The position numbers and the translations under genes are program-made. Source: an uncultured Gemmatimonadota bacterium (GTDB taxonomy: Bacteria > Blakebacterota > Blakebacteria > Blakebacterales > Blakebacteraceae). From it: 31,039 nucleotides of DNA. Positions 29,962 through 30,125 of the stretch are shown in pieces (position 1 is the stretch's first letter; each line of letters begins with the position of its first letter). A model generated the notes under the pieces. That model was given only the letters and a program-made list of their open reading frames with translations. It did not search any database and was not told the origin of the DNA. The stretch lies in NCBI GenBank assembly GCA_964576115.1, contig CAZNUA010000010.1, positions 62,001 through 93,039 of the forward strand, written 5' to 3'.

Positions 29962-30011
29962 GTTTCAGGAACGATCACACGCACACCACAATCGGGTGCT
30001 CCGGCACCTGA
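29958..30011 (+). CDS. Possible 17-aa peptide MSFRNDHTHTTIGCSGT
   Basis: ATGA overlap with the radical SAM stop and AGGA upstream; its TGA overlaps the RBS of the next ORF. May be chance. Confidence 0.25.
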   Translation: MSFRNDHTHTTIGCSGT

Positions 30012-30023
30012 AGGAGGACGATC

Positions 30024-30125
30024 ATGCGTTCGACCCTGTCCCGTATTCTCAGTATCGGCAGCTTTGTCTTCACACTCATCGCCAGCACGGGCGCCGCCTC
30101 ACGGCTCTATTACATGATTGACTAG
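30024..30125 (+). CDS. 33-aa peptide MRSTLSRILSIGSFVFTLIASTGAASRLYYMID, candidate RiPP or signalling-peptide precursor
   Basis: Consensus RBS AAGGAGG (30011-30017) 6 nt before the ATG; directly downstream of the radical SAM gene and upstream of a hairpin. Too short for the ORF track. Confidence 0.75.
   Translation: MRSTLSRILSIGSFVFTLIASTGAASRLYYMID

Follow-up and report, generated by a model that had tools for sequence, protein, structure and literature searches.

The DNA considered here, called the window throughout, is a stretch of 31,039 nucleotides from an uncultured Gemmatimonadota bacterium (GTDB family Blakebacteraceae; assembly GCA_964576115.1, 3.96 Mb and 93.7% complete), and it forms the end of contig C10 (CAZNUA010000010.1). 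Close to that end lies the subject of this work, a gene of 33 codons that stands between a gene for a radical S-adenosylmethionine (SAM) protein and the start of a gene for a solute-binding protein (SBP), all on one strand:

28558..29961, + strand: cobalamin-type (class B) radical SAM gene, with Pfam B12-binding and Radical_SAM domains
30011..30017, + strand: Shine-Dalgarno sequence AAGGAGG of the small open reading frame (ORF), read from the sequence, followed by a 6-nt spacer before the ATG
30024..30125, + strand: the 33-codon gene, with its ATG at 30024 and a TAG stop ending at 30125
30105-30122, + strand: codons 28-33 of that gene, a fast-diverging tail; codons 1-27 encode the conserved basic and hydrophobic part
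30255..31039, + strand: 5' part of the SBP gene, a Pfam SBP_bac_5 lipoprotein with a Leu-Ala-Gly-Cys lipobox, ending with the contig

A conserved gene of 33 codons

The gene had been picked out in a sequence-only reading of the window as a hidden 33-amino-acid (aa) ORF behind AAGGAGG-N6-ATG; both are there, and the residues that it gave agree exactly with the ORF list. We searched 60 related genomes with the peptide and the radical SAM protein as queries (G000 denotes the genome of this window, other G numbers the related genomes, and L numbers loci). Orthologues of the radical SAM protein, 52-65% identical, are present in eight of the nine other genomes of the same order, while the single genome of the same genus, at 83% completeness, yielded none. 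A 33-codon ORF directly follows the orthologue in all eight genomes with downstream DNA, this one included; the G006 contig stops before the position of the small ORF and is outside that count. A metagenome scan with the radical SAM alignment yielded 79 loci, in which 13,967 small frames were scored with a profile of eight peptides. Here too the 33-codon ORF follows the radical SAM gene in four of four loci that have downstream DNA and a radical SAM protein at least 57% identical (E values 2e-13 to 3e-17), and the next best frame scored E 0.89. One locus, L058, holds only the first 234 radical SAM residues and was left aside. The small ORF thus adjoins the radical SAM gene in 12/12 loci of the family.

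A profile search of 1.84 billion representative public proteins (cut-off E <= 1e-3) returned 13 matches, 12 of them small proteins: ten of 33 aa, one of 32 aa and one of 58 aa with an early start call. The thirteenth, a repetitive protein of 772 aa, was discarded as a false hit, and the matches of single-peptide searches in unrelated genomes (E 0.2-1.6) were taken as chance. The peptide set comprises 23 distinct sequences, of which 20 have 33 aa and 22 belong to the 32/33-aa family. The family carries no annotation, as no Pfam or NCBIfam model matches any of 13 members; the ESM Atlas contains the exact peptide sequence and offered no usable look-alike.

Conservation extends to the start of the gene and to its coding pattern. 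All 12 members examined have an ATG start and a strong Shine-Dalgarno sequence 5-9 nt upstream, so that both the ORF and the ribosome-binding site, whose lack of conservation in relatives had been named as refuting the idea, are kept. Nei-Gojobori ratios of nonsynonymous to synonymous substitution (dN/dS) of close pairs are 0.09-0.35, and column entropy at codon positions 1, 2 and 3 is 1.10, 0.74 and 1.37, the third position being highest and the second lowest. By this pattern, purifying selection acts on the protein sequence of the peptide, and by its conservation the ORF is a real gene. A chance ORF, a translated leader that regulates only the downstream SBP gene, or a type I toxin would suit an ORF that is short and hydrophobic and has a hairpin after it. 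We regard this as highly improbable, given the selection on protein sequence, a length fixed at 33 codons, the 23 distinct homologues and a linkage that is to the upstream radical SAM gene; moreover, 33 residues are too short for a nascent-chain sensor, and a search of 27900-31039 against Rfam found no element (0 matches at E <= 1). A chance ORF, in particular, was rejected on the dN/dS ratios and the public homologues.

Among the 20 distinct members of 33 aa, Met1, Arg7, Phe14, Gly23 and Arg27 are invariant and position 21 is Ser or Asn. What follows Arg27 is a short tail, six residues long in 20 of the 22 distinct 32/33-aa members and five in the other two. In the 33-aa members, position 28 is always Val, Ile or Leu, position 31 is Ser in 14/20, position 32 is Met, Trp or Cys in 15/20 (Cys in four, this genome's copy not among them) and position 33 is Asn, Asp, His or Gln in 17/20; judged from these columns, the tail is constrained rather than random. 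The sequence-only reading had described a basic N-terminus, an amphipathic hydrophobic leader and a short C-terminal core, SRLYYMID, with tandem Tyr. Its general layout has held up: the net charge over the first ten residues is +2 to +3, the helix is moderately hydrophobic and moderately amphipathic (moment 1.1-2.6 standard deviations above shuffles), and the tail is short. The proposed core has not, for it is not conserved as a unit. Its Ser26 and Arg27 still lie in the conserved part, variation being confined to the final six residues, and Tyr-Tyr occurs in no other copy; at that place the closest relative (radical SAM protein 81% identical) has Phe-Leu.

The hydrophobic helix is flanked by Arg7 and Arg27, 20 residues apart; after the invariant Gly23 come mostly small residues, directly followed by Arg27. 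Such a peptide is compatible with a marginal membrane helix, with an in-plane anchor or, given the small residues past Gly23, with a segment resembling a signal peptide, and its sequence would permit cleavage in that small-residue stretch.

That reading had also likened the peptide to AgrD, the precursor of an autoinducer. If it were a true AgrD-family precursor, an AgrB-type membrane protease would make a cyclic thiolactone from it, and the general layout alone, an amphipathic N-terminal helix and then a short C-terminal part, fits this. Family membership is refuted. The 13 members gave only two spurious hits at E <= 10 and match neither AgrD (PF05931) nor any other Pfam or NCBIfam model, the window peptide itself has 0 Pfam families at E <= 0.01, and AgrB (PF04647) has no match in the 93.7%-complete genome. 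Nor are the hallmarks present, namely a Cys or Ser five residues ahead of the cleavage point and an acidic C-terminal follower: this copy has no Cys, hence none at the place required to form a thiolactone, and no acidic follower, the peptide ending six residues past Arg27. We consider an AgrD precursor about as improbable as the chance ORF.

The radical SAM partner, sensor genes and control region

The upstream partner has an N-terminal B12-binding domain and a radical SAM core in which Cys194, Cys198 and Cys201 are invariant across nine orthologues, and by these features it is a class B (cobalamin-dependent) radical SAM protein. Its GTG start at 28558 was picked from the alignment of orthologues; the longest ORF begins at 28480. 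It has no NCBIfam equivalog, the best match being ApyD at 140.7 bits against a cut-off of 750; other weak matches include HpnR, HpnJ and BchE, the last at 117.9 bits against 481. The nearest solved structure is that of OxsB (sequence E 3.8e-42, fold E 1.9e-26), and an AlphaFold2 model (mean predicted local distance difference test score 80.4) has OxsB, TsrM, AprD4, TokK, MgmA and CysS as its best fold matches. At its C-terminus the model places two long helices, 411-435 and 437-456, with a conserved hydrophobic stretch. A prediction of the complex of the radical SAM protein (alignment A4) and the peptide (alignment A3) with a 4Fe-4S cluster and SAM gave scores of 0.02 and 0.10 against a mark of 0.32 and was used neither for nor against contact between the two. 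Near the gene we found no recognition element of peptides that are made by ribosomes and modified after translation (RiPPs), no protease and no transporter.

A radical SAM scan of genome contigs returned the same relatives again and otherwise only unrelated class B enzymes. Homologues below ~36% identity stand in other contexts, with PDZ/TPR proteins, Lon-like proteins, and S9 and M29 peptidases, and 11 of the 12 such loci looked at have no comparable small ORF. The exception is L075, where the gene for a 33%-identical class B radical SAM protein and a second radical SAM gene flank an ORF of 69 aa (7529-7738) whose ribosome-binding site is strong and whose C-terminus is Cys-rich; the locus is a RiPP-like cluster of a different kind. 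Separately, the orthologue in G004 (L040 9826-11173) is split over two frames of 376 and ~170 aa, which reflects either a frameshift or a misassembly; that genome has intact genes for the peptide, the SBP, the kinase and the regulator.

The sensor genes continue on another contig of the assembly, C50 (L136 1-3728), which opens with the missing C-terminal part of the SBP and continues with a kinase and a regulator:

L136 827-2344 (C50): HAMP-HisKA-HATPase kinase, its start overlapping the SBP stop
L136 2349-3728 (C50): sigma-54 response regulator with a receiver domain and a Fis-type helix-turn-helix

Across C10 and C50 the order is therefore radical SAM gene, small ORF, SBP_bac_5 gene, HAMP kinase, sigma-54 regulator. 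The same five-gene order, hereafter the cassette, occurs in G004, L051 and L054 and in the distant cassettes of G073, L055 and L057; in L053, where the order was read as far as the kinase, the SBP is followed by a PAS kinase. The sensor domain of the kinase is Cache-like: sCache_3_2 passes the threshold in G073 and L057 and matches weakly in this genome. The SBP gene is not followed by ABC permease genes. The break between C10 and C50 falls inside the SBP gene, the most polymorphic gene of the cassette, and this polymorphism may explain the break.

Cassettes in which the radical SAM protein is only 37-41% identical extend the arrangement to at least three deeply separated lineages, and there the small ORF is a different one:

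L148 5563-5655 (G073): 30-aa variant of the peptide
L145 (G236), - strand: homologous 30-aa ORF, downstream of the radical SAM gene
L055 6119-6205: 28-aa small ORF after the radical SAM gene
L053 ~7388-7474: 28-aa small ORF, overlapping the 3' end of the radical SAM gene in another frame

G073, a complete genome of 5.0 Mb from another deep lineage, has in order a receiver protein, the radical SAM gene, the 30-aa ORF, a terminator, the SBP lipoprotein, the Cache kinase and the sigma-54 regulator, and a sigma-54-like promoter precedes the cassette. The 30-aa peptides have a basic start, a hydrophobic helix, an Arg and a seven-residue tail containing Pro-Pro-Leu. In L056 and L057 the counterpart of the peptide is an in-frame C-terminal extension of the radical SAM protein that aligns without gaps to the 28-aa ORFs. 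Because the counterpart is fused in frame to the enzyme, these two loci point to direct contact between enzyme and peptide. The borosin-type protein OphMA is likewise a precursor fused to its modifying enzyme, and as there the peptide counterpart of L056 and L057 is an extension of an enzyme that elsewhere has it as a separate gene; the enzyme class is another, and the fusion is confined to a distant branch of the cassette and does not occur in this genome.

The same fusion, together with the strict adjacency and presumed co-transcription of the two genes, could also suit a peptide that serves the radical SAM enzyme as membrane subunit, anchor or substrate in a membrane-bound process, with a sensor that has no direct link to it and only switches the operon on upon an outside cue. 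The two C-terminal helices of the modelled enzyme could lie on the membrane with their conserved hydrophobic stretch, and lipids are the substrates of many class B enzymes, with HpnR, HpnJ and BchE among the weak NCBIfam matches. A passive anchor, however, leaves the constrained six-residue tail unexplained, and the small ORF is swapped for unrelated-looking versions of 28 or 30 aa while the radical SAM protein stays recognisable. We consider this reading quite unlikely.

Upstream of the radical SAM gene, an alignment of nine loci reveals a conserved control region, and a possible stop lies after the small ORF:

28279..28296, no strand: first 18-bp palindrome, kept in 8/9 aligned upstream regions
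28311..28325, no strand: box just after the first palindrome, a conserved block in the nine-region alignment
28379..28396, no strand: the palindrome's second copy, lying ~100 bp further downstream, from the sequence and the nine-region alignment (8/9)
28472..28487, + strand: sigma-54-type promoter element, with GG at 28473-28474 and GC at 28485-28486, eleven bases on
30170..30210, + strand: GC-rich hairpin after the small ORF, with a 13-bp stem and a fold z-score of only -1.48

The GGCA.G and TGC columns of the promoter element are invariant in 9/9 aligned upstream loci, the call resting on that alignment and on sequences read by eye; similar elements, also by eye, lie upstream of the distant cassettes L148 and L057. 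The palindromes stand ~100 and ~200 bp above the element; the first is likely a binding site for a sigma-54 activator (an upstream activating sequence), and the box after it may be a DNA-bending site. Given the invariant GG...GC element, the two palindromes and the presence of sigma-54 (rpoN) in the genome, the radical SAM gene and the peptide gene are likely a sigma-54-dependent pair whose probable activator is encoded in the adjacent sensor operon. Between the two genes no promoter-like site was called, and we infer that they are co-transcribed. The hairpin could be a transcription stop or an attenuator between this pair and the sensor genes. A consensus terminator scan does not call it; a hairpin with a T run is visible after the small ORF in G009, L052, G007 and G073. 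The public runs listed for 28400-30400 include no RNA run.

Uneven divergence across the cassette

Close relatives differ from one another very unevenly along the cassette. Peptide residues 1-27, the radical SAM protein, the cytoplasmic part of the kinase, the regulator and the flanking genes are conserved, and the six-residue tail, the SBP and the periplasmic domain of the kinase diverge much faster. The comparison covers five close pairs with radical SAM proteins at least 79% identical, which are few, related and not independent. Between G000 and L049, flanking proteins are 77-89% identical, the radical SAM protein 81% and peptide residues 1-27 identical at 25/27 positions, as against 2/6 in the tail and 47% in the SBP; two exported neighbours in the same pair, a lipoprotein and a 725-aa protein, are 77% and 83% identical. 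At the nucleotide level, identity is ~80% over codons 1-27 and 40-55% from ~30108 on, a break at about codon 28. In G004 and L051, the radical SAM protein (83%), the regulator (81%) and the cyclase (84%) contrast with an SBP at 57.5%, and within the kinase the periplasmic residues 41-140 are 28-33% identical and the HAMP/HisKA part 82-97%. The 28-aa cassettes L053 and L055 behave alike, with radical SAM proteins 75% and SBPs 49% identical.

In the third 33-aa pair, G009 and L052, the radical SAM protein is 94% identical, the peptide 32/33 and the SBP 52%. Nucleotide identity (L042 of G009 against L052) is 92-98% through the 3' part of the radical SAM gene and the small ORF and then falls to 50-63% in the SBP gene, a break that looks like allele replacement by recombination. 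Across the five pairs, the ratio of SBP to radical SAM identity is highest, 0.89, in the pair with identical tails, against 0.58-0.73 in the other four.

By analogy, the joint divergence of tail, SBP and kinase sensor domain is pherotype-like, a pattern described for comQXP (PMC4408185, PMC4008528), the first source tying comparable polymorphism at that locus to pherotypes. The peptide would also resemble a RiPP precursor, with a conserved recognition part and a more variable core, here a tail that is semi-conserved across the family. For a peptide that merely partners its enzyme, it is unexpected that the break at codon 28 coincides with a fast-evolving SBP and kinase sensor domain.

Beyond these comparisons, the flanking DNA of the window holds several genes of separate interest. 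At 22193-27276 a FecR-domain protein, the 725-aa protein, which belongs to no family, and a CHASE2 adenylate cyclase stand together; L049 and L051 have counterparts of the latter two at the same place. The gene at 19308-20876, only a few genes away from the cyclase, encodes an MscS-type mechanosensitive channel with a cyclic-nucleotide-binding domain fused to it. On the minus strand at 27344-28156, divergent from the radical SAM operon, lies the gene for a lipoprotein (270 aa, without any family), which occupies the same position in G007, G008 and L049; G003 and G005 instead have a DPP-IV-type peptidase upstream.

A candidate peptide signal and its alternatives

Taking linkage, control region and divergence together, we propose that the 33-aa product is a ComX- or AgrD-like pro-peptide of a new family, probably matured by the radical SAM enzyme, whose tail would be sensed by the SBP and the kinase in an autoinducing loop. 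We put the probability of this reading at roughly 0.45. It preserves the suggestion of the sequence-only reading that the peptide might form a distinct class, since a context of modifying enzyme, peptide, sensor and regulator fits a signalling pro-peptide of its own class. In the proposed scheme, the sigma-54 regulator would bind the two palindromes and fire the sigma-54 promoter, giving a two-gene transcript for enzyme and peptide. The enzyme would then modify the peptide, with the conserved residues 1-27 as its guide; the chemistry most often found in class B radical SAM enzymes is C-methylation. By its basic N-terminus and its 19-residue helix, which has Arg7 and Arg27 on its flanks, the peptide would insert in the inner membrane with its C-terminus outside. 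There the tail could be displayed, or cleavage in the small-residue stretch around Gly23 could free it as a peptide of ~7-10 residues. The SBP_bac_5 lipoprotein would bind the tail and dock on the Cache domain of the kinase, and phosphorylation of the regulator by the kinase would close the loop.

Several observations weigh against this proposal. The invariant Arg27 right behind the hydrophobic stretch disfavours Sec export of the tail, and with a mean hydropathy of only 1.0-2.1 over residues 8-26 and an uncharged run of 13-19 residues the peptide is neither a clear-cut signal peptide nor a clear-cut membrane helix. There is one peptide gene copy per locus, and the cassette encodes neither exporter nor protease. 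The radical SAM protein belongs to no specific family and has mostly small-molecule enzymes (OxsB, TsrM, AprD4, TokK) as its nearest solved relatives; unlike comQ, its gene is not polymorphic. Since the tails of G009 and L052 differ at one residue while their SBPs are 52% identical, SBP divergence is not simply tied to the tail. Periplasmic proteins often evolve fast in any case, an objection that is limited by the two exported neighbours of the G000/L049 pair, at 77-83% identity, and the close pairs are only the five non-independent ones.

Much of this would suit a small protein that stays anchored in the membrane, is never released and modulates the kinase, the SBP or both from inside the membrane; the radical SAM enzyme would then be the true output of the system and act on another substrate, a lipid or a small molecule. 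Arg7 and Arg27, 20 residues apart around a helix with the invariant Phe14 and Gly23, and a positive N-terminus fit an orientation with the N-terminus in and the C-terminus out; the tail diverges together with the periplasmic domain of the kinase and with the SBP; and the lack of an exporter or protease in the cassette, the single gene copy and the small-molecule enzymes nearest to the radical SAM protein are all as expected. MgrB, a small membrane peptide with a short periplasmic part, is under the control of the two-component system, PhoQ's, that it modulates. An action of that kind would here give feedback through induction by the regulator; the two peptides share no sequence relation, and this one is tied to a radical SAM gene and an SBP. 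However, in 12 of the 22 distinct 32/33-aa members the uncharged stretch runs to no more than 13-16 residues, short for a membrane span, and an anchored modulator leaves unexplained both the linkage of peptide and radical SAM gene across phyla and the fusion in L056 and L057. Very fast SBP divergence between near-identical strains would also be unexpected if the SBP sensed an external cue. We consider such a modulator, including one that acts on its kinase as MgrB does on PhoQ, unlikely.

The proposed pro-peptide has ComQXPA of Bacillus subtilis, the system of the ComX pheromone, among its closest parallels. The gene order of comQXPA is modifier, peptide, sensor, regulator (PMC4008528). Both loci carry modifier, pre-peptide, kinase and regulator on one strand, here with an SBP gene inserted before the kinase; in both the active part would be the last few C-terminal residues, and signal and receptor parts are polymorphic beside a conserved regulator. 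The peptides share no sequence similarity, and the adjacent modifier is a cobalamin-type radical SAM enzyme rather than a ComQ-like isoprenyl transferase, and is not polymorphic. The regulator here is a sigma-54 activator, and the host carries Gram-negative-type envelope genes (MlaE and MlaD, Mla-type outer-membrane genes).

In the staphylococcal AgrBDCA system, an amphipathic N-terminal helix takes the precursor to the membrane, the system's own two-component pair autoinduces the operon, and peptide and sensor are hypervariable. The same three traits are proposed here, in a locus with no AgrB, no Cys at the ring position, no acidic tail and no family match, and with the extreme C-terminus as the variable part. 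For the sensor, LuxP with LuxQ, and the SBP_bac_5 chitin-oligosaccharide binding protein with ChiS, are precedents of binding-protein-dependent kinases whose ligand is a small molecule or a sugar. The periplasmic SBP of the cassette, also without permease genes of its own, would act as co-sensor of a membrane kinase in the same manner, its ligand being, on this proposal, a peptide that the cassette itself encodes. For the enzyme, PoyC, Mmp10, ApyD and MgmA are class B radical SAM enzymes whose substrates are peptides or proteins. The enzyme studied here has the same B12-binding and radical SAM domains, with MgmA among its fold matches, and may act on a ribosomal peptide; it differs from that group in having neither an equivalog-level match nor, close by, a recognition element, a protease or a transporter.

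Peptide autoinducers that have their own modifying enzymes and diversify into pherotypes are textbook knowledge in Gram-positive bacteria and, to our knowledge, are hardly known in outer-membrane bacteria; no account of such a cassette was found in the open-access literature searched. The fullest form of the proposal is the more tentative one, which we consider doubtful as it stands: a new class of ribosomal peptide pheromones in uncultured, Gram-negative-type bacteria, with a 33-residue pro-peptide matured by a cobalamin-dependent radical SAM enzyme, a short variable tail read by a dedicated SBP_bac_5 lipoprotein and a Cache kinase, sigma-54 autoinduction, and strain-specific pherotypes kept by recombination with breaks exactly at the tail codons. 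The cassette would then have reached the logic of ComQXPA and Agr from unrelated parts, namely a class B radical SAM enzyme, a family-5 binding protein, a Cache kinase and a sigma-54 activator. Even on the alternative readings, the small gene represents a new, unannotated family of small proteins with a clear genetic partner. If the proposal is true, it would add a new RiPP-like family and a new type of substrate for cobalamin radical SAM enzymes, and would provide a testable case of signal-receptor co-diversification in uncultured sediment bacteria.

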